64,000 bases of DNA from an uncultured Chloroflexia bacterium. GTDB taxonomy: Bacteria > Chloroflexota > Limnocylindria > Limnocylindrales > CSP1-4. Under the pieces are notes generated by a model. The model worked only from the letters and a program-made list of their open reading frames with translations, searched no databases and had not been told where the DNA came from. The translations under genes and the position numbers were made by a program. Positions within the stretch are counted from its first letter, which is position 1; every line of letters begins with the position of its first letter. Where the stretch lies: positions 192,001 through 256,000 of the forward strand of contig CAVQJC010000006.1 in assembly GCA_963712745.1 (NCBI GenBank), given 5' to 3'. Shown here in pieces: positions 7,980 through 37,184 of this stretch.

Positions 7980-9809
7980 TCATCCGGGCGGGCAGGGCTC
8001 GAGCGGATCGCCGAGCATGAGATCGACCTTGGACCCGACCGGGACCGACTCACCCGGCTTGGGCAGCTGGTCGTGCACGACCCAGTCGTCCTCGGGCGGA
8101 GGATCCTCCGGGTACGTAGCGCCGACCAGCAGGCCGAGTTCCTGGAGGTGGGTCCGCGCGGTGGCAAGGTCGGAGCACATGAAGTCACCGACCAGGGCGG
8201 TCTCCGACGAGGGGAACGGCGTAGGCGGAGACGTTACCTCCGACGTGGGGGCCGCCGTCGGCCGCCGTGTCGGTCGTGGCGTCACGCGCGGCCCCGGGGT
8301 GAGCTCGGCTGCAGGTCCGGTCGAGACCGTGTAGTCGATGAGCGCGCCGCGTGTGGCCGACGAGCCCGCGCGAGGGTCGGTCGAGATGACGTAGCCCTCA
8401 GGCAGCTGGTCAGCGGCGCTGGAGCGAGCGCCGACACGCAGCCCGGATGCCTCGAGCTGCTTGAGAGCGTTGTCCTCCTTGATGCCGTGGACGTCGGGGA
8501 CCACGACCGTCTCGATCTGCGTGGCGACCGTTACCTGCACGGTCGTGCCGGCCGGGACCCGCGTGCCGGGTTCGGGCAGCTGCTCGATGATGCGGCCTGC
8601 CTCGACCTCGTCTGTCTCGTGGAAATCCATCTCCAGCACCACGCCCTCGCGCTCGGCCAGGGCAAGCGCGCCGGCTTCACGGCGGCCGACGAAGTCGGGC
8701 GTCTCGACCAGCTCGACGGTCGGCTCCGGGGTGGGGCTGGGCGTCGGCTCCTCTTCGCCGATGCCGCTGAAGAGGAGGAACAGGATGATGCCCGAGGCGA
8801 TGATGACCAGGAGCCCAAGCCCGGCAGCCATCCAGGCCCATGGACCCGATCCGGAGCGCTCGGGGTCGCCCCCGTCGGGGGGCCCAGAGGCCGCGTGGAC
8901 CGTCTGGGTCGGGGGCCGTGGCGGGCCTGCGTGTGGTGGGACGGATGCGGCGGCGGCGCCGGCGGCGGCCAGGGCGGCGGCGCCGGTCGGGTCGGTGCGG
9001 AATCGCGCCAGGGCGGTTGAGAGCTCGGAGGCGGTCGGTCGTGCCGCCGGGTCGACGGCCAGGCACCAGCGCACGATGGCATCGAGCGCCGGGGGCACCT
9101 CCGCTCGCACGGCCATCGGCGAGGGCACGCCGCCTGAAAGCCGGGCCACCGCCACGGCCGCGGGCGAGTCCCCGGAGAAGGCGCGCTGGCCGGTGAGCAT
9201 CTCGTACATCACCAGGCCCAGCGAGTAGATATCGGAGGCCGAGGTAGCGGTGTCGCCACGCGCCTGTTCCGGGCTGAAGTAGAGGACGCTACCAAGCGTG
9301 ATGCCGGTGGCCGTGACCGGTGAACCGGCGGCCGCCTGGGCGATGCCGAAATCGGCCACCTGCACGCGGCCATCGGGCGAGAGCAGGATGTTGCTGGGCT
9401 TGATGTCACGATGGACGAGGCCGCTGGCGTGGGCAGCCGCGAGTGCGTCGGCCACCTGCTGGCCCATGTTCGCCACCGCGGTCGGCGGCAGGCTGCCCTT
9501 CTTGCCCAGGGCCGACGAGAGGTCGCCGCCGGAAACCTGTTCCATGACGATGTAGGGACCGGCGCTGTCGGTGCCGTAGTCGTAGACCTGGACGATGTTG
9601 GGGTGGCTCAGTGACGCGGCGGCCTGGGCCTCGTGCTCGAAGCGTTCCACGAATTGGGCGTCGGCGCCGAACTCCGGCCGCAGGACCTTGACCGCGACCT
9701 CACGTCCAAGCTTGTCGTCGGTGGCTCCGAAGATGGTGGCCATGCCACCCTGGCCGAGGACCTGGTCCAGGCGATAGCGGCCGCCGAGGAGCGTGCCAAG
9801 CTCAGCCAC
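7980..9809 (-). CDS. PknB-like Ser/Thr protein kinase with TM and PASTA domains
   Basis: LGQGGMA, VAVK, HRDIKPSN, DFGIA and SPEQARG motifs, a TM, and 2-3 PASTA repeats. Confidence 0.95.
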   Translation of the reverse strand: MAELGTLLGGRYRLDQVLGQGGMATIFGATDDKLGREVAVKVLRPEFGADAQFVERFEHEAQAAASLSHPNIVQVYDYGTDSAGPYIVMEQVSGGDLSSALGKKGSLPPTAVANMGQQVADALAAAHASGLVHRDIKPSNILLSPDGRVQVADFGIAQAAAGSPVTATGITLGSVLYFSPEQARGDTATSASDIYSLGLVMYEMLTGQRAFSGDSPAAVAVARLSGGVPSPMAVRAEVPPALDAIVRWCLAVDPAARPTASELSTALARFRTDPTGAAALAAAGAAAASVPPHAGPPRPPTQTVHAASGPPDGGDPERSGSGPWAWMAAGLGLLVIIASGIILFLLFSGIGEEEPTPSPTPEPTVELVETPDFVGRREAGALALAEREGVVLEMDFHETDEVEAGRIIEQLPEPGTRVPAGTTVQVTVATQIETVVVPDVHGIKEDNALKQLEASGLRVGARSSAADQLPEGYVISTDPRAGSSATRGALIDYTVSTGPAAELTPGPRVTPRPTRRPTAAPTSEVTSPPTPFPSSETALVGDFMCSDLATARTHLQELGLLVGATYPEDPPPEDDWVVHDQLPKPGESVPVGSKVDLMLGDPLEPCPPG

Positions 9810-13244: not shown

Positions 13245-13413
13245 GATCCGGCCGCCGCGGAATCGGGTCGCGCTCACCGGCTGATCGTAGCAGAGCGCCC
13301 CGCACATCGAACCTCGAGCACTGGCGCCTGGATCTCGCACCGTCGCGGTCCCGCTACTCGGGCCCCTCGCCGATCCCCGGCTGAAGGCTTGCGCGGGGCC
13401 GTATCGTTCACCC

Positions 13414-13800
13414 ATGAGTGAACAGACGATGCCCCTCGGTGCCTTCTCCGTCAGCCTCGCCGTCAAGGACCTGGCGGCCTCGCGTGCGTTCTACGAGAAG
13501 CTCGGATTCCATGCCGTCTTCGGTGAGCCTGAGCAAGGCTGGCAGATCATGCGCAACGGGAGCACCACCATCGGGCTCTTCGCGGGCATGTTCGAACGCA
13601 ACATCCTGACCTTCAATCCCGGCTGGGATGCCGACGCCCAGCCGCTCGATTCGTACACGGACGTCAGGGAACTGCAGCGACGACTGGAGGCGGCGGGGGT
13701 CGAGTTCGAATCGAAGGCTGATGACTCGACGACCGGCCCAGCGTCATTCGCAGTGGTCGACCCGGACGGCAACACCATCCTCGTCGACCAGCACGTCTAG
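13414..13800 (+). CDS. VOC/glyoxalase family protein
   Basis: [19 protein letters not shown]...IGLF...NILTFNPGW...[13 protein letters not shown]. Confidence 0.92.
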
Positions 13801-24339: not shown

Positions 24340-25142
24340 ACGTGCCCGATCGCACCACGCAGCGAGTGCGCGAGTGGCTCCGACAGTCGACGCCGGACGC
24401 GCCGGAGGCCGAGCGCAGCGTCGACGAGGTCATGACCACGTTGTTCCAGGCATCACAGCTGCGGCCCCGGTCGTCGTTCCGCTTCCTGCGCAGAGCGGAT
24501 TGGGGCGAAGGAGGGTATTCGATGTTCTCGGCACTCAAGATCGGTGTGGCGACAGCGCTCGTGGCGCTGCTCGGCGGAGTCCTGGCCATCAGCACGCTGC
24601 CTCAGGAGCAGCTACCCCAGGCACCGGCCGCAGCCACGGAGGTAGCGACCCCGGAGATCTCGCTAGAGGACCTCCCGCCATACGCTGCCATCAACGGCAA
24701 GATGTTGGCGGGTCCCAATACCCACTTGCCGGACATGGAGATCGACCCGACGACGGGCCGGGGAACAGGCAATGACTATGCCTGGACCATGAGCCTCGAA
24801 ACGAACGACCCCAGGCTCGATGGGCCTTTCCTTTCCAACCACGACTACCTCGTCTTCGAGGGCGAAGACCCGTTTAGCGGTTCCCTCCGCAACGGCATCG
24901 GTACGCTGTCGAACGAGGGCGGATCCTGGAGCGTCGAGTTCCACGGATTCTCGAAGCCCGGCCAGAGCAACATCACCAGCGACTACTACGTGACCTACCT
25001 CACCGGCGAAGGCGGATACGAAGGGCTGTCCGCGATGCTGTTGTCAGTCCCTGCCGGGAGCTACTGGGCCGTCGATGGCGTCATCGCACCTGGCCCCATG
25101 CCCGAGCCCCCGACCACGGTGGAGCCGGCCATGGCGGAGTAG
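24336..25142 (+). CDS. Putative membrane anti-sigma/sensor with conserved MFS..TM anchor and extracellular 'DPR' domain
   Basis: ATGA overlap with the ECF gene, a ~60 aa cytoplasmic part, TM MFSALKIGVATALVALLGGVLA, then NDPRLDG...GEGGYEGL. Confidence 0.75.
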   Translation: MNVPDRTTQRVREWLRQSTPDAPEAERSVDEVMTTLFQASQLRPRSSFRFLRRADWGEGGYSMFSALKIGVATALVALLGGVLAISTLPQEQLPQAPAAATEVATPEISLEDLPPYAAINGKMLAGPNTHLPDMEIDPTTGRGTGNDYAWTMSLETNDPRLDGPFLSNHDYLVFEGEDPFSGSLRNGIGTLSNEGGSWSVEFHGFSKPGQSNITSDYYVTYLTGEGGYEGLSAMLLSVPAGSYWAVDGVIAPGPMPEPPTTVEPAMAE

Positions 25143-25669: not shown

Positions 25670-26746
25670 CTACGGGGAGCAGTCGTCCGGACTGTTGTCG
25701 CGGATGTTGCCGGTGGGATCGCAGGCGACCCCGACGACGTAGGGGAAAGCGTCGTAGTAGCCGCCACCCCACGCGCCCGCGGTGTTGTGATGGATCGAGC
25801 TGGAGTCGTGGAGGATGAGCGGACCGCCGTTCCATACGCCGCCACCGTTGTTGCCGGTGGCGTTGTGGTGGATCGAGCTGGAGTCGTTGAGCGTGAGGTA
25901 GGCGTAGTTGTGGACGCCGCCGCCCTTGGTCGACGCCTCGTTGCCATGGATCGAGCTGGCGTCGTTGAGAGTGACGCTGCCGTAGTTCGAGACGCCGCCG
26001 CCGATCTCGGTGCTGGCCGCGTTGTGGTGGATGGAGCTGGAGTCGTTGAGGATGAGGGTGCCGATGTTGAAGACGCCGCCGGCCTGGTTGGCCGCGTTGT
26101 GGTGGATGGAGCTGGAGTCGTTGAGGATGAGTGTGCCGTCGTTGTCGACGCCACCGCCGATCAGGCTGACGGCGGTGTTGTGGTGGATGGAGCTGGATCC
26201 AGAGAGTGTGAGGGTGCCCATGTGGGTGTTGCCGACGCCACCGCCGTTGCTGGCGACGTTACCGCGGATGGCGGCGGCGCCCTGGAGCCTGAGGGTGCCG
26301 CGATCATTGAAGACGCCGCCGCCGTTCCCAGTGGCGGTGTTGTCGCGGATCACGGTCGAGCCCATGAGGACGAGGGTGCCGCGGTTGAGGATGCCACCGC
26401 CCTTGGCCGCCTTGCCGTCACGGATGCGGACGTCCGCTATGGCCACCATCGCGCCTGGCTCGATGGTGATGACGCTACCCTGACCATCGCCATCGAGCGT
26501 CGGCCGGCCCGAGGCCTCCGTTCGGATGCCCCTGATGCTCAGGTGCTTGCCGATCGTCGTTACGCGGTGGCAGGTGCCTCGCACGGTTAGCCGGTGGCCC
26601 TTGCGGGCGAGCGTGACCGCCTTCTGGAGGCTGTTGCTCGTGGCGCCGGTGTCGAGGTTCTTGACCCGACAGGCAGTAGCCGACCCAGCAGCGACCGGCG
26701 CCGACGCGGCCGCGATCGTCAGCGTTGCCAGCAGGGCCGTCGACAT
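25670..26746 (-). CDS. Secreted right-handed beta-helix protein with Pmp-like GGGVxN repeats
   Basis: About 8 repeats of GGGV-x-N-x-G-x-L-x-L-N-D-S-S-S-I-H-H-N-x-A (24-26 aa) and a signal-like N-terminus. Confidence 0.8.
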   Translation of the reverse strand: MSTALLATLTIAAASAPVAAGSATACRVKNLDTGATSNSLQKAVTLARKGHRLTVRGTCHRVTTIGKHLSIRGIRTEASGRPTLDGDGQGSVITIEPGAMVAIADVRIRDGKAAKGGGILNRGTLVLMGSTVIRDNTATGNGGGVFNDRGTLRLQGAAAIRGNVASNGGGVGNTHMGTLTLSGSSSIHHNTAVSLIGGGVDNDGTLILNDSSSIHHNAANQAGGVFNIGTLILNDSSSIHHNAASTEIGGGVSNYGSVTLNDASSIHGNEASTKGGGVHNYAYLTLNDSSSIHHNATGNNGGGVWNGGPLILHDSSSIHHNTAGAWGGGYYDAFPYVVGVACDPTGNIRDNSPDDCSP

Positions 26747-27249: not shown

Positions 27250-27328
27250 TGGCGCCCCGAAGGGGTCTTGAGGGACCCGGTTGCGACGCAGTGACGACCA
27301 GCCGGCGTGGCACGCGGAAGCGGAGTAG
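27250..27328 (+). repeat. tRNA-Glu 3'-end copy 1 (att-like) plus degenerate integrase C-terminal tail
   Basis: TGGCGCCCCGAAGGGG then TCTTGAGGG. With one indel it encodes WRPEGVLRD...DDQPAWHAEAE*. Confidence 0.75.
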
Positions 27329-27397
27329 GCCAAGGGCGGAGTCTGCCAAGCCAACAGTTCGCCTGATCCCTGGGGCCGTGTGCGTCGTCGTGTATGT

Positions 27398-27592
27398 GTG
27401 GAGACCGGACAGCACGGGCCGGCCGGTTCGAGGACTGGGTCGACCGCATCGTCGTTGACACCTGCTGCGACCGCCTGCGGAGGGCCGCCCGACGGCCGAC
27501 CACGGACGTCTCGACGCAGACCGCATTGAGCACCCCGGAGGCCACGGCTAACGTGCACCGGCGGCTGATGGTGGAGCAGGCCTTCGCCGATT
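27398..27592 (+). pseudogene. Internally deleted ECF sigma factor, paralog of 28502..29080
   Basis: Same GTGGAGACCGGACAGC start, then FEDWVDRIVVDTCCDRLRRAARRPTTDVSTQTALSTPEATANVHRRLMVEQAF versus FEHWFDRIVVNTCRDRLRRSARRPTTDISTQAALSTPDASADVHRRLLVEEAF. Confidence 0.85.
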
Positions 27593-27647
27593 CCGGCGAG
27601 GACGATGGCGATAGACTGCAGGGGGCGTTCGCCACCAGGAGGATGAG

Positions 27648-28253
27648 ATGATCAGGTTCCGACTGCTCAGCGCCGCGTTGGGTGCGCTGCTGCTGCTGGT
27701 GCAGGCCGGCGGTGTCCTCGCACAGACGCCGCCACCCATCGAGCGCACACCGGAGATGGAGGAGCGTGCCGTCGAAGTCGCCGCGCTGTTCCCCGACGAG
27801 ATCGCAGGCGCGTCCCTCCTAGAGAATCTCGACATCAGCGTCGGGCAGGAGGTCCTCGCCACGTTGGATCCGAACGACCCCGATGATGCGGCAGAGATCG
27901 CCCAGTTTGACGAGATCGTGGCGGCCGTCGGAGCGACACTGGACGATGTAGCGACCGCGTCCAGCTACGCCCAGCTCGACGAGGATGCCTATGCCTTCGT
28001 CATCGCCTTCCAGATCCGAGGCGCCGACATCCAGCCGGCACTGCCGCTCCTCGCGGCTGCCCTCGAGGAGGACATGAGCGAAGCGGTCGTCGAGCAGGGG
28101 CAGGTCGGCGACGTGGATGTGACACTGTTCCGCAGCGCCGAGGACCCGGAAGGGGACGCGAACGTCATGCTGGCTCGAGGTGACGTCATCTGGCTGCTCA
28201 CCGTGCCAGCAGAGCTCCTCGAGGAAGCCATCGAATCGCTGCCCGAGTCCTGA
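27648..28253 (+). CDS. Secreted acidic hypothetical protein
   Basis: AGGAGG RBS and signal peptide MIRFRLLSAALGALLLLVQAGGVLA. Confidence 0.75.
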   Translation: MIRFRLLSAALGALLLLVQAGGVLAQTPPPIERTPEMEERAVEVAALFPDEIAGASLLENLDISVGQEVLATLDPNDPDDAAEIAQFDEIVAAVGATLDDVATASSYAQLDEDAYAFVIAFQIRGADIQPALPLLAAALEEDMSEAVVEQGQVGDVDVTLFRSAEDPEGDANVMLARGDVIWLLTVPAELLEEAIESLPES

Positions 28254-28355
28254 CGCATCGCGGCACGCGCCCATCAGGGCTGTGTCCGATGCGTCGTCGC
28301 CGCGCCCTCGGGTCGACTGTGAGCGCCCTGCCTCGGCGGCCTGATGGCGAAGGTC

Positions 28356-28433
28356 TGGCGCCCCCAAGGGGTCTTGAGGGCTCAGAGGCAACGCACTGAC
28401 GACCCGCTCGCGTGGTACGCGCAAGCGGAGTGA
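28356..28433 (+). repeat. tRNA-Glu 3'-end copy 2 (att-like) plus integrase C-terminal tail
   Basis: TGGCGCCCCCAAGGGG then TCTTGAGGG, encoding WRPQGVLRAQRQRTDDPLAWYAQAE*. Confidence 0.85.
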
Positions 28434-28501
28434 GCCCGCGGCCCTCCTCGACCAGGTCGAACTGACCCAATCCTTCGGGCCGCCTACGTCGTCATGTCTA
28501 T

Positions 28502-29080
28502 GTGGAGACCGGACAGCGCCACTTGACGGGAACGCGCACGATGCCTGCAGGGGGGCGCATGGCAGAGACAGAGGCCCAGCGGGCCGCGGCGTTCCAGGCG
28601 CTGGCGGACGAGCACCTGCTCCGGAGCTACCGGCTCGCCAACGCCATCCTCGGTGACCAGACCGAATCCCAAGACGCTGTACACGACGCTTTCATCAATG
28701 CCTGGCAGCGGTGGGATTCACTGCGCGACCGGGCCAAGTTCGAGCACTGGTTCGACCGCATCGTCGTCAACACCTGTCGCGATCGCCTGCGCAGATCGGC
28801 GCGGCGGCCAACCACCGACATATCGACGCAAGCGGCGTTGAGCACTCCGGACGCCTCGGCCGACGTACACCGGCGACTGCTCGTCGAGGAGGCTTTCGCA
28901 CGGTTGAAGGCCGACGATGTCGTCGTGCTGGCGCTCCGCTTCTTCGTGGATCTCGAGACGGAGGACATCGCCCGACTGCTGGACGTGCCCACACCGACCG
29001 CCAAGACGCGACTGAGATCAGCGAGGATGCGACTTCGCGACCTCATCGAGCGACAGACACCCACCGAGGCAGTCCCATGA
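28502..29080 (+). CDS. ECF sigma-70 factor (cassette 2)
   Basis: ESQDAVHDAF, KFEHWFDRIVVN and EDIARLLDVPTPTAKTRLRSA. Confidence 0.92.
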   Translation: METGQRHLTGTRTMPAGGRMAETEAQRAAAFQALADEHLLRSYRLANAILGDQTESQDAVHDAFINAWQRWDSLRDRAKFEHWFDRIVVNTCRDRLRRSARRPTTDISTQAALSTPDASADVHRRLLVEEAFARLKADDVVVLALRFFVDLETEDIARLLDVPTPTAKTRLRSARMRLRDLIERQTPTEAVP

Positions 29081-31692
29081 ACGACCACCAGCTCGACCTC
29101 GCGCTTCAGGCGATGGGCAGAGATCGGACCGCGGTCGCCGAACCGCCCGAGCTCCGGGAGCGAGTGGCCGCGATCCCGCTCACCACGCTCCGACGCCGCC
29201 GCTGGCTGCCGGCGACCGACACCAAGGCGTTCACCATGTTCTCCACACTCAGGTTCGTCGCCGCTGCGTCCATCGTGGCGCTGTTCGGCGGCTTCCTGCT
29301 TGCGGGCATCCTGACCACGCCGCAAGGGGACGAGATGGCCCCGGCGGCGGTGACCGACTCACCCTCGCCGATGACGACCGAGGAATCGCTCTCGGGCATG
29401 GTCACCGAGGAGGTGGAGCCGGGCGTCTTCCGGGTCGTCAACGATGGCGTGCGGGACCTGACCCTGGAGGGACTCTGGGGTTGGTGGATCGACATCGTTG
29501 CGGGTCTGGACGGTAGCGTCTGGATCGTCACCGACCACGATCTCTTCCGGCTGGGCGACGAACGGACGCACCCCTGGCTCGAGGAGATTCGGAATCTCGA
29601 CTCTCTCGCACCCCTCGGGGTCGACCGCGAGGGGAGGGCGTGGCTCGGCGGGTCGGTAGACGGTGGACCTTGGCGGGGTCTCTTCGCACTCGAAGGCGAG
29701 ACCTGGACCAAGTACGCCCCAGCGGACATCCCGGCGGGAGTGGCACTCAGCCAGGCGGAGTTGGGGCCGGACGGTGCCATGTGGGTGGCGCTGGACTGCT
29801 GCGACGCCGGCCTCGAGGCCAGCCCCCCAGACGCTGCCCTGCCCATCCTGGCCCGTCTCGAGGACGGTGTCTGGGAGACCGCCCACACCGAGGTCCCAGA
29901 CCGGGGGAGCCTGCACGTCGGCACCGACGGCCCCTTCGGATTCATCGACGAGGTCTTCTCCCGCTACGACGGCGCTGACTGGCAGCCGCAGGAGATGCCC
30001 TACGACGGGACCGACTCCTTCAGCGATCTGGACCAGCTGGCCGGCCCGGAGAACACCCTCTGGCTGGGCCTCTGGGGGGAGTGTCCCGACGGTGAGGAGG
30101 ATGCCTGTGGCGATACGGACTCGCCCCGCTACGGTCTCGCCCGCAATGACGGGAGCGGCTGGGAGGAGTGGCTCATGGGCGGCTTCCCGGACAAGGACGG
30201 GGAGAACCTTCTGTCAGCACTCTTCCTGAGAGCCGTCGGAACTGACGGCAGCCTGTGGGGCAGTCTCGAGTGGGGAGGCGACGGAGCGTCCTGGCCGGGA
30301 TGGAGTGGTGATGCCGCCCGTTGTGATGGCGTGGCCCACTTCGACGGTGTCGAACTGGACCGCCACCTGCGGGGCCTCTGCGTAGGGCCCTTGGAAGTCG
30401 CTCCGGATGGCGCGGTCTGGCTACTTGCCAGCGCCACCCCTTCGACGAGTTCCGATGTCTACGTCATCACCCCCGATGCCGTGGCGCTCAAGGAGTCCGA
30501 TGTTGCCGAGCTACCTTCGGTGGAGGAGGCGACCGACACCGAGGACTCCACGACGACCGCCTCCGACATCCTGCCCGGCGTCACCCTGACCGTCGAGGAG
30601 GTCAAGCCAGGCGTCTTCCGGGTCGTCAACGACGGTCACAGGGAGCTACCCACCTCGGACGACGACTTCGGTGGCTCCGTAGATGTCACCCCCGATGGCA
30701 GCGTCTGGCTGCGCAGCGACAGGCAAGGCTTGTACCGCCTGGGAGATGAAGCTACGTTCGACGACTCGACGGAGATGCGGCCATCCATCCAGGTCGCTCC
30801 CGACGGCTCGCTCTGGGCCATCGGTCAGTTCCTGGACGACCGTATGGCCGTCTTCTCGTTCGATGGCCAGGGATGGACGGAGCGGACCGACCCGACCGGC
30901 AACGACCCCCATCTCGACCCCCTCCTCGAGAGGCTGGCCATCGGACCCGACGGGACGGTCTGGGTGACGACGACGGACGAGCGCAAGTACTGCCCCGACA
31001 TCGAGGCTGGCGAATGCCCCGGCACCTTCCTCGTGCGGCTCGAGGACGACGGTTCCCTGACGACCATCAACGACTGGCCCGATGCTTACGATGGCGACGC
31101 GTCTCCACACCGACTGGTGGTGTCACCCGACGGCGACGTGTGGCTCATCGGCGCGAGGCGCTGGGGTGGTCGCTCGGGTGGTCCGGAAACCGAGGCGCTC
31201 CTGCGCTTCGATGGCAGCGGGTGGGAAGTCCTCCCGCTTCCCGACGGGTTCCTAGACGCCAGGGTGTGGCGGTCGTTCGGCTTCGGTCCTGACGGCACAC
31301 TGTGGGTGCAGGTCCGCGGCCTCGCCGCTGGCCACCCCGATGCGCGCGGCCTCGCCCGCTTCGATGACCCCGGCTGGACCATGTTCACCGAGCCCGATGG
31401 CGGTTTGGGCTGGCAAGGCTGGACCGGGTCCGACGGCGAGCCCGTCTGGCCCGGTGCAGACCTGCTCACCGTCGCCGCCGACGGCAGCTTCTGGCTGCGC
31501 GGAAGACCGACCGCAGACGGCTGCGGCGGCGTGGCCCACTTCGACGGCACGACGTGGACCACATATCTGGTCGAAGCCTGCATCAGCGATCTCGCCATCG
31601 CCCCCGATGGCAGCGTCTGGCTGCGCGGCGAGGTGGGTGTCCAGGGCCACCTCTACGTCATCACCCCCGAGGCCGTGACGGCCACCGGGTAG
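29077..31692 (+). CDS. Putative membrane anti-sigma/sensor with MFS..TM anchor and two tandem beta-propeller-like modules
   Basis: ATGA overlap with the ECF gene, TM MFSTLRFVAAASIVALFGGFLLAG and many (A/G)PDGxxW blades. The module is duplicated (EEVEPGVFRVVNDG/EEVKPGVFRVVNDG; GVAHFDG x2; YVITP x2). Confidence 0.8.
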   Translation: MNDHQLDLALQAMGRDRTAVAEPPELRERVAAIPLTTLRRRRWLPATDTKAFTMFSTLRFVAAASIVALFGGFLLAGILTTPQGDEMAPAAVTDSPSPMTTEESLSGMVTEEVEPGVFRVVNDGVRDLTLEGLWGWWIDIVAGLDGSVWIVTDHDLFRLGDERTHPWLEEIRNLDSLAPLGVDREGRAWLGGSVDGGPWRGLFALEGETWTKYAPADIPAGVALSQAELGPDGAMWVALDCCDAGLEASPPDAALPILARLEDGVWETAHTEVPDRGSLHVGTDGPFGFIDEVFSRYDGADWQPQEMPYDGTDSFSDLDQLAGPENTLWLGLWGECPDGEEDACGDTDSPRYGLARNDGSGWEEWLMGGFPDKDGENLLSALFLRAVGTDGSLWGSLEWGGDGASWPGWSGDAARCDGVAHFDGVELDRHLRGLCVGPLEVAPDGAVWLLASATPSTSSDVYVITPDAVALKESDVAELPSVEEATDTEDSTTTASDILPGVTLTVEEVKPGVFRVVNDGHRELPTSDDDFGGSVDVTPDGSVWLRSDRQGLYRLGDEATFDDSTEMRPSIQVAPDGSLWAIGQFLDDRMAVFSFDGQGWTERTDPTGNDPHLDPLLERLAIGPDGTVWVTTTDERKYCPDIEAGECPGTFLVRLEDDGSLTTINDWPDAYDGDASPHRLVVSPDGDVWLIGARRWGGRSGGPETEALLRFDGSGWEVLPLPDGFLDARVWRSFGFGPDGTLWVQVRGLAAGHPDARGLARFDDPGWTMFTEPDGGLGWQGWTGSDGEPVWPGADLLTVAADGSFWLRGRPTADGCGGVAHFDGTTWTTYLVEACISDLAIAPDGSVWLRGEVGVQGHLYVITPEAVTATG

Positions 31693-31761
31693 GGATGGGG
31701 GGCCTGCGCTAGAAGGATCGAGCACCACAGCATGCGAGTTCTGTGCAGACGGGAGGAAGAG

Positions 31762-33183
31762 ATGCGCACACTGCGGGTATCTATCATCGGTGCGATCCTG
31801 GTGGCCGTATCCGCTCTGGGGGTCGCAGCCCAAGCACAGGAACGGCCGGCTGGATCCGACCTGCTCGTCGTGGAGGGCACCGGCTCGTTCGCCGCCATCC
31901 CGGGCCACGCTTCCGGCACCAACACCATGAGCGATCCCCGCGTCAGCGGCGACGTGGTCGTGGACTACGACTACGTGTGTGATCCCACGATGTCGAACTG
32001 CAGCGTCTGGGGCGAGGAGACCATCACTAACGACGGCGGGTCCTGGGTCGGTGAGTTCATCGGTCTCATCAGATCGGGACCCACCTGGGAGAACAACATC
32101 ACGGCGTGGCTGAACGGCAGCGGGGACTACGAGGGCTGGAGCTACGTGGTGAACTACTCGGGCCCCATGTCGGCAAGCTCAGCCGAAGGTCTGATCTCTC
32201 GTGTGCCGCTCCCGCCGACGGTGGCCCTGGGCATGACCGAGGCTTCGGCCGTGATCCCTCCGGCCCAGGCGGCCGAGGAGCCTGAGGTCGGCGAGCCCGT
32301 GACCGACGTGTCACAGGTACCACCGGACGAGACCATCGGGGAGCCCGCCGATGACGGTGCCGCCATCGTTGCCGTGGAGCAGCAGGACGAGCGGACGGTC
32401 GACCTGACCATCGACTCCCCGGCCGTGGGCACCCGGAAAGCGCGACTGCTCCTGCCGGCCGGGTTCGACTCCGAGGCGGGTGCGACCTGGCCTGTCCTCT
32501 ATCTCCTCCACGGGGCGATGGGGAACCATTCAGACTGGACGACCCTGACGGACGCGGCCGACCTCGTCGCCGACCTCGGCCTGCTCGTGGTCCTGCCCGA
32601 TGGCGGCGCCGACAGCTGGTACTCCGACTGGTGGAACGGTGGTGAGGGTGGACCGCCGATGTGGGAGACGTTCCACCTGACCGAGCTGCGTCAGCTGCTG
32701 GAGCGGAACTGGCAGGCCGGCGAGGATCGCGCGGTGGCCGGTGTCTCGATGGGTGGCCTCGGTGCCATGTCGTACGCGGCACGGAACCCCGAACTGTTCA
32801 AGGCTGCGGCCTCGTTCAGCGGCCACCTGAAGCCGCTCGGTTCCGAGTTCCACCCGGACGGGCGGATCTGGGGCGACAAGGTTGCCCAGGCCGACATCTG
32901 GGAGGCCCATGACCCGATCAGCCTGGCGCCGGCGCTCGAGGGCATGGCGCTGTACGTGTCGTATGGAAACGGCGAGGTCGGCCCCTTCGACGACGCCGAT
33001 GCGCTGCCCGACCAGCTCGAGGCATGGCTCGCCGAGATGAACGAGGCTTTCGTCACCCGGCTGGATGAGCTCGGCATCCCCGTCACCGTCGACGCCTACG
33101 GCCCTGGCAGACACGACTGGCCATACTTCGAGCAAGGGCTGCACGGGGCCATGCCGCTACTGCTCAAGGCTCTCGACGGCTGA
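31762..33183 (+). CDS. Secreted fusion of a 'DPR' domain and an antigen-85/esterase-type alpha/beta hydrolase
   Basis: Signal peptide, SDPRVSG..GSGDYEGW, then WPVLYLLHG, SWYSDW, WETFHLTEL, GVSMGG (nucleophile) and GRHDWPYF. Confidence 0.85.
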   Translation: MRTLRVSIIGAILVAVSALGVAAQAQERPAGSDLLVVEGTGSFAAIPGHASGTNTMSDPRVSGDVVVDYDYVCDPTMSNCSVWGEETITNDGGSWVGEFIGLIRSGPTWENNITAWLNGSGDYEGWSYVVNYSGPMSASSAEGLISRVPLPPTVALGMTEASAVIPPAQAAEEPEVGEPVTDVSQVPPDETIGEPADDGAAIVAVEQQDERTVDLTIDSPAVGTRKARLLLPAGFDSEAGATWPVLYLLHGAMGNHSDWTTLTDAADLVADLGLLVVLPDGGADSWYSDWWNGGEGGPPMWETFHLTELRQLLERNWQAGEDRAVAGVSMGGLGAMSYAARNPELFKAAASFSGHLKPLGSEFHPDGRIWGDKVAQADIWEAHDPISLAPALEGMALYVSYGNGEVGPFDDADALPDQLEAWLAEMNEAFVTRLDELGIPVTVDAYGPGRHDWPYFEQGLHGAMPLLLKALDG

Positions 33184-33257
33184 CGACGCTATCTCGGACC
33201 CGACCGGCCGAGCCGGGGCATCGCGCCCTCCAAGGAGTAGCGCACGAGGGGAGGGAG

Positions 33258-33338
33258 TGGCGCCCCCAAGGGGCCTTGAGGGCGCGGGAACAACGCGGCC
33301 GGTGCGACCCGCTGGCGTGGTATGCCGAACGTGCGTGA
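33258..33338 (+). repeat. tRNA-Glu 3'-end copy 3 (att-like) plus integrase C-terminal tail
   Basis: TGGCGCCCCCAAGGGG then CCTTGAGGG, encoding WRPQGALRAREQRGRCDPLAWYAERA*. Confidence 0.85.
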
Positions 33339-33630
33339 TCTGCCTCTGCGTCGGGCCAGCCGGGCCGACGTCGAGCAGGGTCGCTAGCGCCCCGGACGAA
33401 GCCCCGGCGATGACGCCTGCGACCTTCAGGCCCTCGAACACGATGGTCACGCCGAACGCCGCGAGAAGCACGCCCTCCACGAGGACACTGGACTGGTCTG
33501 CGAGCGGCCTGAGGACACTCGGCTCCATGGCGAGGGGTGAAGGTCCTCAGGGACCCGCGCAGGATGCCCGACCCGGCCGCATTCAGACCAGCACGACCAG
33601 CGGTCGCAGGTCGCGCACGCTCAGAGGGTG

Positions 33631-34631
33631 CTATCCCTCCTCGGCTCCTGCTACGGGCAGCAGGTTGATGAGGATGGTCGACGGGATTGCCATTCGTGAT
33701 GACCGGGATCGAGCATCCGTAGAGCCGAGGAGGGCGCCCGTCGCCACATCCTCCAGACGGGCCTCGATGACATAGCTGCCGGCCTCGTCGACTTCAGCGA
33801 TTTCATACTCGATCGAGAAGACTCGGGCTGGCCGCAACCGAAACCGACCGTCGACGATGAACTCGCCCACCAGCGCAGCGGCAGGTTCGGTCGCGAACTG
33901 TCTGACAGGGTCACCACCAAGCGCGCGTCGGTTCCGAGGTCCGCGAGATCGGAATCAGCGATCGGAGTCCTGATCCACCCACGTAACCGGTGGTGCCATC
34001 GTCGGTGGCCTTCACCAGCTCGATCTCGATGTCTTCCACGGGGTTGCCGTTCGTGATGACGGGAATGTCAGTCTCGCCGGATCCGGGTCAGTGCCCAACG
34101 CAACGAGGCGCTTGACCTCCGACTCCTCCATCCGTGTCCTCAGCACATACGCTACCGACCGTCGTCGATCGTCTGGATGCTGAAGTCGTACTCGATGCTG
34201 CACTCGTAGGTCCACGACCGCGCTGCGGCATTCTCGAAAACGGCCTCACCCAGCGGAGGGGTTCCAGCCTCCGAAGCCTGGGCGTCCTCGAGCGCTACGC
34301 ACGATCCGCACTGACCTCTGTGGCTGGGCGATGGCTCCAGTATTCACCACGCCACTCACGCTCGGCGGCAGCCGAGGCGATTTCTGCTCCTGCGGCCGCG
34401 CTCGCCCTGCCGCGTCGTCAAGACACCGGCTAGGAGGAAGCTGCCGAACAGCGCCACGATGGCACCGGCGAGAACGAACTTGGTTGCACTGAACATGGTC
34501 TGAAATCTCCGTTTGGGTGCCTGGGCGGCGACCGAGTGGGCCACGGCGAGCGCGTCGACAGGCGGCTCTGGGCCGGCCATACGGCTGAGCTCCTCGGCAA
34601 TGTCGTGTTCGAATGACGTCCTGTCACCCAT
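33631..34631 (-). pseudogene. Frameshifted putative anti-sigma/sensor (cassette 3): MFS..TM anchor plus two YbaY/YscW-like domains
   Basis: TM MFSATKFVLAGAIVALFGSFLLAG. Fragments VALEDAQ..PPLGEAVFEN..IEYD..YVLRTRME and VVTLSDSS..IEYEIAEVDEAGSYVIEARLED. Confidence 0.6.
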
Positions 34632-35181
34632 CGCTGAGCTCCTGTCGAAGTCGCGAGAGCAGCCGTTCCAGACGGTTGCGGGTGCCCGATGGGGTCAACC
34701 CGATAACCGTCGAGAGTTCGGTCGCGTTGAAGCCGGCGACATAGCGCATCGCGAGTAGCGCCCGTTCGTCCGGATCGAGGCCTTCGAGCGCATTCCGCAG
34801 GTCAGTGAGCCAACGCGCCTGCTCGACTGCACAGCCCGGACGCCGGATTCGCCGAGGCATCCGCTGTCGATCTCTACCTGTGAACGACGGCGCTGCTTGC
34901 GCAGCAGCTGCTGACCTCGTTCACGGCGATCGACACGAGCCAGGGTCTTACCCGTTCGGGTTCGCGGACCTTGCCGAGCTTGTTCAGGCGATGCAGCCGA
35001 GGCCGCTTGCACGGCCTCTTCGGCGATGGCCCGGTCGCGACGCGACGCAGACGCGCGATGCATCGTCACCGTTGTAGGCAGCGACGATGCGAGCGAACGC
35101 GACTTCCGATGTGCACCCTTCGCCGCTGATGCGACGACTCCGGAGAGTTCCCGGTCTGCAGTCCTGCGTCATGGCCTCCAT
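34624..35181 (-). pseudogene. Frameshifted ECF sigma factor (cassette 3)
   Basis: Fragments EVAFARIVAAY, IAEEAVQA and DLRNALEGLDPDERALLAMRYVAGFNATEL..TPSGTRNRLERLL. The stop overlaps the anti-sigma start. Confidence 0.8.
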
Positions 35182-35419
35182 GCCTGTAGATGCACCGAGA
35201 GTGTCCCGTGCCTGGGTAGGAGAGACAGAGTAGTGCGTTGTCCGTGCTTGCTCGGGCTGGCGCCCTGAGTCGATCGGGAGTCGGGCGTCAGGTGCAGTCC
35301 GACTCGAGACCGTCGGCGCGGGGCGTCCTAAGCATCCGGGTCACGGAGTGCGTGTCCGCCACGCAGGAAGGCGCGCCCTTGAGGGCATGACGAACGTCCA
35401 GCGCAGGCTGTTCGAGGAT

Positions 35420-35555
35420 GGCCGCCACAGGGGCCATGACCCGTAAGTCAATCGTCATCGAGAAAGTCGCCGTGGACGACCGGAGTGTCGACTCAATCAC
35501 GTGGACGCCGCAAGCGGCGCCCCTCTTCGAAAGACAGTGGTGGCGCCCCCAAGGG
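35420..35555 (+). pseudogene. Remnant of a recombinase C-terminus reading into tRNA 3'-end copy 4
   Basis: In frame MTRKSIVIEKVAVDDRSVDSITWTPQAAPLFERQWWRPQG, ending in TGGCGCCCCCAAGGG (35541-35555). It resembles large serine recombinase C-termini, but no catalytic domain is present. Confidence 0.6.
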
Positions 35556-36766
35556 TGTCTGAGTTCAGGACATAGGTGACACCTGATAGGTCACAGGTGA
35601 GTCGGGACATAGGTGACAGTCCGGTGCATGTCGAAGCATCGGGTGGCCGTCCTGAAGGTCCTCACGCATCAGTCGTCCGTCACCGCTGCCGCAGCCGAGG
35701 TGGGATCGGGGCCCTGCGCGAGCGCCGCTGCCGCGAGGGCGGACTCGAGGCGCTCGAGCCGCGGTCGCGGCGGCCACGACCAGCGGCCGCATACGCCGAG
35801 GCGGTCCGCGAGCGCATCGTCGCGTTGCGCACCGAGCTCACCGCGCAGGGCCTCGTGCCCGCCCCGACGATCGTCGGCACCTCGAGCGCGAAGGGCTCTG
35901 TTCGGACTCGACGATCCGGCGAGGTCCTCCATGCCGCGGGCCTCGTCGTGCCCGAGCCGCGCAAGCGCCGCGCAGCTCGCGGACCGCTCGAGGCGACTGA
36001 TCCCAACGCTGTGGCAGTCGGACGTGCCCACTGGCGAGCTGCGAGGACAGCGACGCTCGTCGACCCACTGCCGGCTCGCTCGACTGCGGCCGCACTCGAC
36101 GGTGACGACGTGGTGGCCTCGTTCTGCGGGCGAGCCCACTGGCTCCGCGGCACGCTCACGACGCGCGGTCTACACCTCGCGCTTCACGGGTGGGCGCAAC
36201 GCTTGAGTACCTGCTCGCCTACCTCGGTAGTCAAGCAGAAGAACGGGGCGCCTGGCCATCCCCAGACGCAGGGCAAGATCGAGCGCTTCCACCAGACCTT
36301 GAAGCGCTGGCTCGCACAGCGACCCGCGGCACGGACCATCCCTGGCTGCAGGCCCAGCTCGAGACCGCTCGGCGCCGAGCCTACGGCGCGACCGCACCGG
36401 GCTCTCGGGCGCCGGCACCCCGGCCGAGGCCTACCGGGCGAGCCCGAAGGCCCACCCCGCCGGGCGCGGCGCCCCAGGGCATCTGCGCCTGCGCTACGAC
36501 CTGGTCGACAAGGGCGGCCGCATCACGTTGCGCCGGGCCGGTCGCCTGCACCACCTGGGGATCGGGGCCGCCCATGCCCGCAAGCGCGTGCCTGGCCATC
36601 GTCGATGAGCGCGCGGTCACGGACGTGCGACCGTCGGACCGGCGAGGTCCTCTCAACCATCGGATCGCGCCCGTCGGTGACTGGCGCAACCAACGACGAC
36701 CGGCAGCTGGTTCATCGGTTGTCACCGATGTCCCGACTCATCTGTCACCTATGTCGCGACTATGCA
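35556..36766 (+). mobile_element. IS481-family element, heavily frameshifted, inserted at the tRNA-Glu 3' end
   Basis: Starts TGT and ends CA. GGACATAGGTGACA occurs twice at the left and inverted (GTCACCGATGTCCC, TGTCACCTATGTC) at the right. Transposase fragments PNxLWQSD and HPQTQGKIERFHQTLKRWL. Flanked by tRNA-end direct repeats. Confidence 0.85.
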
Positions 36767-36767
36767 G

Positions 36768-36834
36768 CGGCGCCCCAGGGATTCGAATCTCCACCTTGAA
36801 AGGGTGGCGTCCTAGGCCTCTAGACGATGGGGGC
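36768..36834 (-). tRNA. tRNA-Glu (anticodon TTC), T-arm/3' part degraded in this sequence
   Basis: Minus strand GCCCCCATCGTCTAGAGGCCTAGGACGCCACCCTTTCAAGGTGGAGA-TTCGAATCCCTGGGGCGCC. The D-arm and anticodon arm are intact, but the 5' strand of the T-stem is missing. Confidence 0.85.
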
Positions 36835-36887
36835 CAGCGACCGAGGGAGTGTACCCGAGGCGGCGACTCCACCCCGGGCGGCGTCAA

Positions 36888-37184
36888 TCAGACGCGGATG
36901 AAGGTGAACACCGAGGCCGCCGCGAGACAACCTGCCGCGGCCATCGCGAAGATCCCGCCCATGGCCGCGCCCAGCAACGAGCCGCCGGTCCGGCCCCAGC
37001 GTGCGTCCTTCAACGCCCGCGTCAGGAACCAGGCGGAGATGAAAGCCAGCGTCAGGCCGAGAACGGCAAGACCGGCGACGGTGAAGGCGATGTTCTGGCC
37101 GGAGCGGTCGAGGATGAGGCCGTAGAGGACGACGAGTCCCGAGGCGACGAGGACGACCACGACCGCGATGCGTACGAGCGCCAC
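36888..37184 (-). CDS. Small 3-TM membrane protein
   Basis: Hydrophobic ORF VALVRIAVVVVLVASG...FTFIRV. Confidence 0.6.
   Translation of the reverse strand: MALVRIAVVVVLVASGLVVLYGLILDRSGQNIAFTVAGLAVLGLTLAFISAWFLTRALKDARWGRTGGSLLGAAMGGIFAMAAAGCLAAASVFTFIRV

Follow-up and report, generated by a model that had tools for sequence, protein, structure and literature searches.

Orphan recombinase tails at a tRNA-Glu(UUC) gene of an uncultured Chloroflexia bacterium: probable scars of large serine recombinase islands

Large serine recombinases (LSRs) recombine attP with attB at a central dinucleotide, and their excision needs a directionality factor; serine integrases are valued as genome-engineering tools because a separate factor controls their direction. 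In the phiC31, Bxb1, A118 and SPbeta SprA systems attP lies next to the recombinase gene, and integration is mostly into genes that encode proteins. Here we describe a 64,000-nt stretch of DNA (the window, to which all coordinates refer unless a contig or locus is named) from an uncultured Chloroflexia bacterium (CSP1-4, Limnocylindrales; GCA_963712745.1, contig CAVQJC010000006.1, 192,001-256,000). The 3' flank of its tRNA-Glu(UUC) gene carries what we read, with a probability of about 0.85, as relic LSR islands whose recombinase gene spanned its own attP and whose integration left C-terminal tails as scars. Recombinase genes that contain their own attachment site have been described in other settings. 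The SSV-type 'suicidal' integrases carry the site in the integrase gene, so that insertion into a tRNA gene splits the integrase gene; according to a 2021 review, these are tyrosine recombinases whose gene is fragmented, whose excision needs an intact copy, and which are exclusive to archaea (PMC8371274). At the tRNA locus used by the myxophage Mx8, attP is described as lying inside the int coding sequence, with integration giving a new 3' end that changes the behaviour of the integrase without inactivating it (PMC6070905). For mycobacteriophage BPs, which shows integration-dependent immunity, the C-terminal segment that integration removes is reported to be an ssrA-like degron (PMC4557955).

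Mx8 IntP/IntX is a closer precedent for the present enzyme than SSV, as both are bacterial, both act at a tRNA locus and both have attP in their own gene. Mx8 Int, however, is a tyrosine recombinase that exchanges a much longer C-terminal stretch, whereas the enzyme considered here is an LSR and exchanges only ~20 residues past its last Pfam-matched domain. A first-pass annotation of the window, made from the sequence alone, had drawn an analogy with SSV int(N)/int(C). That analogy is sound in that the gene is split at its own att site, but it is a loose one: the enzyme is a serine recombinase, not a suicidal integrase of the SSV type, and all three of its Pfam-matched domains stay on one side, upstream of the core. 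Because only a tail beyond these domains is exchanged, the LSR is probably not disabled by the split. In phage BPs, by contrast, it is a repressor gene that is split, by a tyrosine integrase, and not the tail of the recombinase itself. Like phiC31, Bxb1, A118 and SPbeta SprA, the enzyme combines Resolvase, Recombinase and zinc-ribbon domains and has a short att core. Arrays at the 3' end of a conserved gene, in which direct repeats of an att core bound stacked, partly decayed elements, are familiar from composites of the staphylococcal cassette chromosome mec (SCCmec) at rlmH, which depend on the Ccr serine recombinases, and from the integrative and conjugative elements and cis-mobilisable elements (ICE/CIME) of Streptococcus thermophilus; we know of no coding recombinase tail left at each repeat in those arrays. 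A search of the open-access literature found no published LSR gene spanning its own attP, and a term search of the main text of an LSR survey preprint returned no instance of 'tRNA' (10.1101/2021.11.05.467528).

Att cores, orphan tails and the recombinase gene

The 16-mer TGGCGCCCCCAAGGGG, the att core, recurs in the window at up to two mismatches at 27250 (one mismatch), 28356 (none), 33258 (none) and 35541 (one), always on the + strand. These four copies compare with 0.06 expected, and none of 100 shuffles reached four, in agreement with the recurrence in direct orientation reported earlier. Core copy 1 (27250-27265, +), the outermost scar, leads into an orphan LSR tail at 27266-27327 (+) that reads WRPEGVLRD / DDQPAWHAEAE before its stop codon, the same tail sequence as in the other copies but frameshifted by a 1-nt insertion. 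Core copies 2 (28356-28371, +) and 3 (33258-33273, +) lead into tails with intact frames at 28372-28433 (+; ...DDPLAWYAQAE) and 33274-33338 (+; ...CDPLAWYAERA). The peptides read from these two cores, WRPQGVLRAQRQRTDDPLAWYAQAE and WRPQGALRAREQRGRCDPLAWYAERA, each closed by a stop codon, are as the first-pass annotation gave them. Ahead of the fourth core (35541-35555, +), and in frame with it, stands IEKVAVDDRSVDSITWTPQAAPLFERQW-WRPQG. The window holds three attR scars (27250, 28356 and 33258), besides a junction next to the tRNA where an LSR remnant with an internal deletion is kept.

Core and tail occur together at this locus only. Across the source genome (G000; 4.2 Mb, 20 contigs, 84.55% complete) the 16-mer has nine matches at up to two mismatches, and a tail or recombinase context is found at the window's four alone. 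A nhmmer profile of core plus tail returned the three tailed copies with E values of 6e-19 to 3e-14 and a next best match of 0.46, and gave no more degenerate scars elsewhere in G000. With core and tail confined to one locus, a generic genome-wide repeat was rejected.

The recombinase could be recognised from the 62-residue frame before 35541, which in a six-frame search matches long open frames in other genomes of the genus. In four of these (G022, G007, G024 and G025; G numbers other than G000 denote same-genus genomes, and L numbers loci or contigs compared with the window) the frame ends ...CRIVV.KVVVDDREI.SIDWTPP..PFFERQRW[CRY]PQGDSNP, its last codons before the stop being the antisense of an intact tRNA-Glu(UUC). 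Given that the 495-aa product in G007 carries Resolvase (PF00239, 3.7e-18), Recombinase (PF07508, 3.7e-9) and Zn_ribbon_recom (PF13408, 1.6e-8), the gene is an LSR, which was the class of enzyme first suspected. The same domains are listed for most of the best 120 homologues, PF07508 being unlisted in a minority. C-termini were sorted for these 120, which are 62-100% identical and were taken from 321 homologues at E<=1e-10. A DSNP-type C-terminus antisense to the tRNA is present in 102; 15 run from the core into a joined tail (...PQG[AG]L[GR]TRPLS.DD.LAWY[AV]A, then a stop), two read into an insertion sequence (IS) and one is cut short. LSR identity, a gene that crosses the core and both forms of the protein end are thus direct observations, and they match the earlier proposal of an attP within the 3' end of a recombinase gene. 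The search suggested at that time, for full-length recombinases with such C-termini, was positive for both the tRNA-Glu antisense and the joined tail.

The named sources of these homologues are mostly metagenome-assembled genomes (MAGs) of Candidatus Limnocylindrales. Eight of nine close loci from genomes are labelled Limnocylindrales, Chloroflexi or Chloroflexia, and eight of the nine read into tRNA-Glu. Close loci from metagenomes number 45, with 14 reading into the tRNA, three into the tail, and 28 cut by a contig end or missed by the pattern.

The far end of an island is directly observed in G022, where tRNA-Glu and the LSR reading into it (interrupted, by eye, by an IS3-type transposase) are separated by ~12.2 kb from another core, which leads into ...DDSLAWYVGAS and a stop codon. 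It had been predicted that the last ~20-25 codons would be left at such a position. The stop codon of this tail and the start codon of a ParB_N gene overlap as TGATG (L028 12160-12190). The ParB_N protein shares 70% identity (E 8e-35) with the N-terminal part of the product of a ParB-DNA methylase fusion gene located downstream of a tail-bearing LSR (metagenome contig L075, 10853-12897). Because the gene that follows the tail in G022 matches the gene that follows a tail-bearing LSR in L075, the joined order (LSR-core-tail-ParB) and the split order are best read as two states of one element family. Excision would rebuild an LSR-tail-ParB operon.

To follow the tail beyond the window we sampled G000 and 36 same-genus genomes, which together gave 21 copies of core plus tail. 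Three are those of the window and 18 come from 10 of the 36 genomes, often two or three within a few kb. The frame is kept through the WY motif in 15 of the 21. In the DDPLAWYA block of these 15 copies, non-consensus letters fall 9, 11 and 33 times at codon positions 1, 2 and 3 (33 of 53 at the third), counts that overstate independence since the copies are related; Leu appears as CTC, CTG or TTG, and Ala with all four codons. Internal gaps in the tail alignment are 3 or 6 nt, the sole exception being the 1-nt insertion in the copy at 27250. Conservation at the level of codons is therefore observed directly, and the pattern of third-position variation and of gaps in multiples of three, which is that of coding sequence, indicates that the tail has been conserved as a peptide, as first proposed.

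Elements differ in the six letters that open the core (TGGCGC, TGGTGC, TGGTAC, GAGTGC or GTGCGC), whereas CCCCAAGGGG is invariant, which would place the crossover inside CCCCAAGGGG. Dyad symmetry around the core, sought by eye, had no clear centre. In tRNAs that adjoin an LSR, other letters follow the acceptor stem (GAGTGC for TGGCGC, for example; L018, L139, L137, L158 and L041-L049), so that some elements supply a tRNA 3' end in which the discriminator base is changed and CCA is not encoded. Upstream of the tRNA-Glu in L140 (G030) lies a partial duplicate that comprises the core and the start of the tRNA in antisense (WYPQGDPNP...WYPQGDSNP); this is a different kind of scar, holding tRNA-body sequence.

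Two further features of the recombinases were recorded. A second LSR subtype, with a C-terminus ending ...VTRVVWTPAARPFFTSGEVVADDSGALFWRPQGDSNP, reads into the same tRNA-Glu and is represented by remnants only (L031 10752-11420, L037 ~8548-8900, L153 and L155; G029, G009, G068 and G031). An open reading frame (ORF) upstream of the LSR, and overlapping its start (L075 8832-9320), may encode a partner protein; its C-terminal ~50 residues have weak partial matches at six other loci (L076, L077, L078, L094, L100 and L102).

The tRNA-proximal junction

The LSR remnant at the tRNA-proximal end (35381-35555, +) consists of two segments that match full-length homologues. Positions 35381-35446 correspond to residues 153-173 (18 of 21 identical, E 1e-10) and 35451-35555 to residues 458-492 (19 of 35 identical, E 3e-11). 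Residues 153-173 are joined directly to 458-492, so that ~285 residues have been deleted internally, and the N-terminus is gone. Pfam scans of selected ORFs of the locus found no recombinase and returned only rve_3/HTH_32 fragments of an IS.

This IS follows the remnant at 35556-36767 (+); it is 1212 bp long with TGT...ACA ends and inverted repeats, and carries many indels as assembled. A fuller sister copy on another contig of G000 (C1:217016-218339, 1324 bp) has rve at 4.1e-14 and HTH_32 at 1.2e-13. The IS481 family is described as measuring ~1-1.3 kb and as having TGT...ACA ends and target duplications of ~4, 15-16 or 25 bp (PMC10045372), and the element agrees with that family in size, ends, DDE transposase and target duplication. 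The C1 copy adjoins the 3' end of an intact tRNA-Asn and is bracketed by a 16-bp duplication, GTGGCTCCGGCGGTAG, which is antisense to the tRNA-Asn end. Two other G000 copies (C1:105018 and the end of C2) also adjoin sequence resembling a tRNA end. In the window the left flank is TGGCGCCCCCAAGGG and the right flank GCGGCGCCCCAGGG, after which the tRNA body begins (36768-36834, -, including the right duplication; defective as assembled). Given these flanks, the core at 35541 and the degenerate copy at the tRNA are one att core duplicated over 15-16 bp by the IS. Core copy 4 is both the left target-site duplication and the tRNA-proximal attL core, and not the separate att scar for which it had first been taken.

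The junction of IS and core is also found in G014, G031, G011 and two diverged metagenome LSRs. From its positions the IS481-like element seems to aim at tRNA 3' ends, and its 15-16-bp duplication preserves the tRNA end. A single literature search found no description of tRNA targeting by IS481.

The tRNA gene itself, a tRNA-Glu as first annotated, could not be called as assembled. ARAGORN found no tRNA in the window. The Rfam tRNA model matched 36771-36834 (-) at 23.9 bits, below its gathering score of 29; this match has a UUC anticodon but lacks the 5' half of the T stem. No second tRNA-Glu(UUC) was found in G000. A 40-nt piece of tRNA-Glu is present once, and identical, in 26 of 49 genomes of the genus (48 relatives and G000). 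G000 has no match to it at up to two mismatches, its own copy differing by missing letters and by one changed letter of the CCA end. Compared with its sister on C1, the window's IS has 28 substitutions but 49 + 17 small gaps. Contigs from four public sequencing runs differ from unique parts of 33.3-35.5 kb by only 0-1 substitutions but 1-6 gaps, and match the flanks at 32800-33131 and 36884-37124 without gaps. On account of the identical piece in 26 genomes, the excess of gaps in the IS, and indels beside clean flanks in the public-run contigs, the tRNA defect is probably an assembly fault rather than a pseudogene, in a region (33.3-36.85 kb) that is probably rich in indel errors. Frameshifts in its extracytoplasmic function (ECF) sigma gene, IS and tRNA are therefore not to be read as decay. 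No sequencing run contained over 0.20 of the words of the stretch, and the run contigs bear neither on excision nor on habitat.

Origin of the array and possible role of the tail

These data allow us to propose how the locus arose. In the free element the LSR gene would run across attP, with a core of 13-16 bp, common to the element and the tRNA end, encoding ...W-R-P-Q-G, and ~20 further codons (VLRAxxQRxDDPLAWYAxA, then a stop) beyond the core. Integration would set the gene body beside the tRNA, where T-arm antisense supplies the new end ...PQGDSNP, and the tail would stay behind in attR, at the island's opposite end. Each scar, we infer, marks a separate integration. An IS481-like element would later have inserted exactly at the tRNA end, its 15-16-bp duplication creating the core copy at 35541.

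The tRNA-Glu(UUC) 3' flank is a hotspot for LSR-driven integrative elements in this genus. Among the 26 genomes in which the tRNA is assembled, a type-1 LSR C-terminus reads into it in seven (only that of G007 being clearly intact), second-subtype remnants are present in four and an IS in one, while 14 have neither LSR nor IS; 11 thus have an LSR C-terminus or remnant. Arrays of two or three tails within a few kb recur in G014, G022, G006, G021 and G031. Together this survey and the recurrent arrays indicate that the site turns over often and that islands decay to their ends.

The array could instead have grown mainly by local tandem duplication, through unequal crossing-over between cores, of a single scar and its cargo unit. 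The two leftmost units would suit such an origin: the tails at 27250 and 28356 are mutual nearest neighbours (79% identical, and 80-83% downstream), both units have a common leader of 48 nt (83%) and an ECF sigma segment (80%, 162 nt) in the same order, and unit 1 resembles a deletion derivative of unit 2. However, the ~20% divergence between units 1 and 2 is equally expected of sibling elements, and the tail at 33258 stands apart, with 63-66% identity to the other two against 72% to a G014 copy. The unit at 33258 also differs in gene order and holds an LSR remnant, and the arrays of relatives include remnants of the second LSR subtype. Duplication as the main source of the array is accordingly possible but doubtful, and at least two element lineages are represented in the window. 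The earlier suggestion of three stacked elements stays plausible as a whole, but its two leftmost units may be a local duplication.

A different course, in which recombinase-less cassettes, each with its own attP, were captured and moved in trans by an LSR encoded elsewhere, we consider improbable. Units of 0.3-1.7 kb bounded by core and tail do recur in relatives (G014, G022 and G006), and several copies share a similar purine-rich stretch in the 10 nt ahead of the core. Yet no LSR of this family is encoded in G000 and no free cassette circle was seen, and both the smallest unit (G022 contig 11, ~0.3 kb) and the 2.3-kb unit of the window still contain remnants of an LSR C-terminus, as would be left by the decay of complete elements. 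Integrons keep a resident IntI tyrosine integrase with attI and a promoter, and their cassettes end in attC hairpins. The description of the locus as an integron-like array fails on similar grounds, as there is no resident recombinase of this family in G000, the repeats are without the conserved hairpin of cassette-type sites, and the 2.3-kb unit keeps its recombinase remnant. It is more improbable still, to the point of being hard to credit, that the sequence past the core was kept as DNA or RNA (a recombinase binding arm, a tRNA-like hairpin or a promoter) with its frame incidental. At LSR att sites the first ~25 nt past the core must indeed lie in the attP half-site, and copies 1 and 2 are conserved past the stop codon too. 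The DDPLAWYA block, however, lies ~45-70 nt from the core and varies mainly at third positions, the gaps are multiples of three, and 15 full-length proteins end with the same peptide. RNA structure in the repeat was rejected: RNAalifold on 19 copies gave five pairs, all inside the core, with no compensatory changes.

Several points weigh against stacked integrations of an LSR that spans its own attP, which is nevertheless the reading we prefer. No intact LSR of this family exists in the window, as the first-pass annotation had stated, or in the assembled G000, and nothing here is therefore demonstrably mobile. Viral contigs contained no close relative, only two distant matches at 22-25% identity, and so give no evidence that the elements are phages. 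The tail-bearing contigs L075 and L067 have no terminal repeats, and no circular junction was seen; tail-bearing genes could stem from tandem arrays rather than from free circles. No LSR is known to accept attL or attR as an integration target, which makes the origin of a tandem array hard to explain, and units 1 and 2, each other's closest relatives, may fit local duplication as well as two integrations. The relatedness of the tail copies, given above with the codon counts, belongs here too. Finally, an AlphaFold2 model of a tail-bearing homologue (96-sequence alignment) has a mean predicted local distance difference test (pLDDT) score of 77.3, with residues 487-509 below 50. The model predicts a disordered tail with a conserved hydrophobic end, and low pLDDT there offers no structural hint of a role or of docking.

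Given the analogies with Mx8 and phage BPs, we put forward tentatively that the exchanged tail acts as a state sensor, the free and integrated forms of the enzyme differing in stability, by way of an ssrA-like degron, or in direction. Direction might then be sensed without, or besides, a separate directionality factor. It is similarly conceivable, though again we would not count on it, that circularisation re-joins the integrase to the next gene (TGATG in G022) and makes expression dependent on excision. Alternatively, the tail may persist because of its overlap with the downstream gene.

The system in the window is a relic, and its value lies in a clear record of a widespread and apparently unpublished LSR design. 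A large natural clade, whose homologues number in the hundreds across metagenomes from soil, sediment and freshwater, departs from textbook LSRs in that its C-terminus differs between the free and the integrated form and its target is a tRNA gene. If the tail does affect stability or direction, this would be a new and compact principle of control. The orphan ...LAWYA peptide beside a tRNA-Glu 3' fragment can also serve annotation, as a marker of the far end of a past insertion, and lets hotspot turnover be counted across species. Mx8, the integrase of which we take to be a tyrosine recombinase, is itself a bacterial exception to the rule that self-splitting recombinases are exclusive to archaea. 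That rule, as worded in the 2021 review (PMC8371274), would need qualifying.

Cargo and flanking sequence

The units bounded by the scars at 27250, 28356 and 33258 measure 1.1, 4.9 and 2.3 kb, and their cargo is mostly ECF sigma factor modules. Unit 1 opens with the leader (27366-27413, +) and the truncated ECF sigma gene fragment (27394-27651, +) that are homologous to unit 2, followed by a gene for a 201-aa protein (27648-28253, +) of no Pfam family, with a hydrophobic N-terminus that resembles a signal peptide by eye. An orthologous stretch of this gene lies ahead of a scar in G006 (L038 147-767, 79.7%). In unit 2 the same leader precedes a complete ECF sigma factor (28502-29080, +; Sigma70_r2 5.2e-13, Sigma70_r4_2 3e-7). 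A large, putatively membrane-anchored protein (29236-31692, +) comes next, with no confident Pfam family and a hydrophobic N-terminal segment that is transmembrane by eye, and then a putative esterase (31732-33183, +; PF00756, 2.1e-32). In the tRNA-proximal unit, core 3 and its tail are followed by ~2 kb holding an ECF sigma pair on the opposite strand and then by the LSR remnant; the ECF sigma gene, fragmented as assembled, and the downstream membrane protein occupy 34356-35168 (-; Sigma70_r4_2 4.1e-7).

On the right, synteny with all compared relatives runs from 36769 onward. On the left it resumes at ~25166 (G027) or at ~13300-13800 (G009, G010 and G005). A tandem repeat of 78-81 nt (147-nt register) is present in six copies at 25779-26399, within overlapping long ORFs that have no Pfam family. 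At 24522-24584, at 29236-29298 and, inverted, at 34402-34499 the window encodes three N-terminal segments (MFS.LK....A..VAL.GG) that are paralogous and hydrophobic and look transmembrane by eye, and the proteins that bear them follow ECF sigma genes. The module of ECF sigma factor and membrane protein is thus a recurrent cargo, and is present in the flank too.

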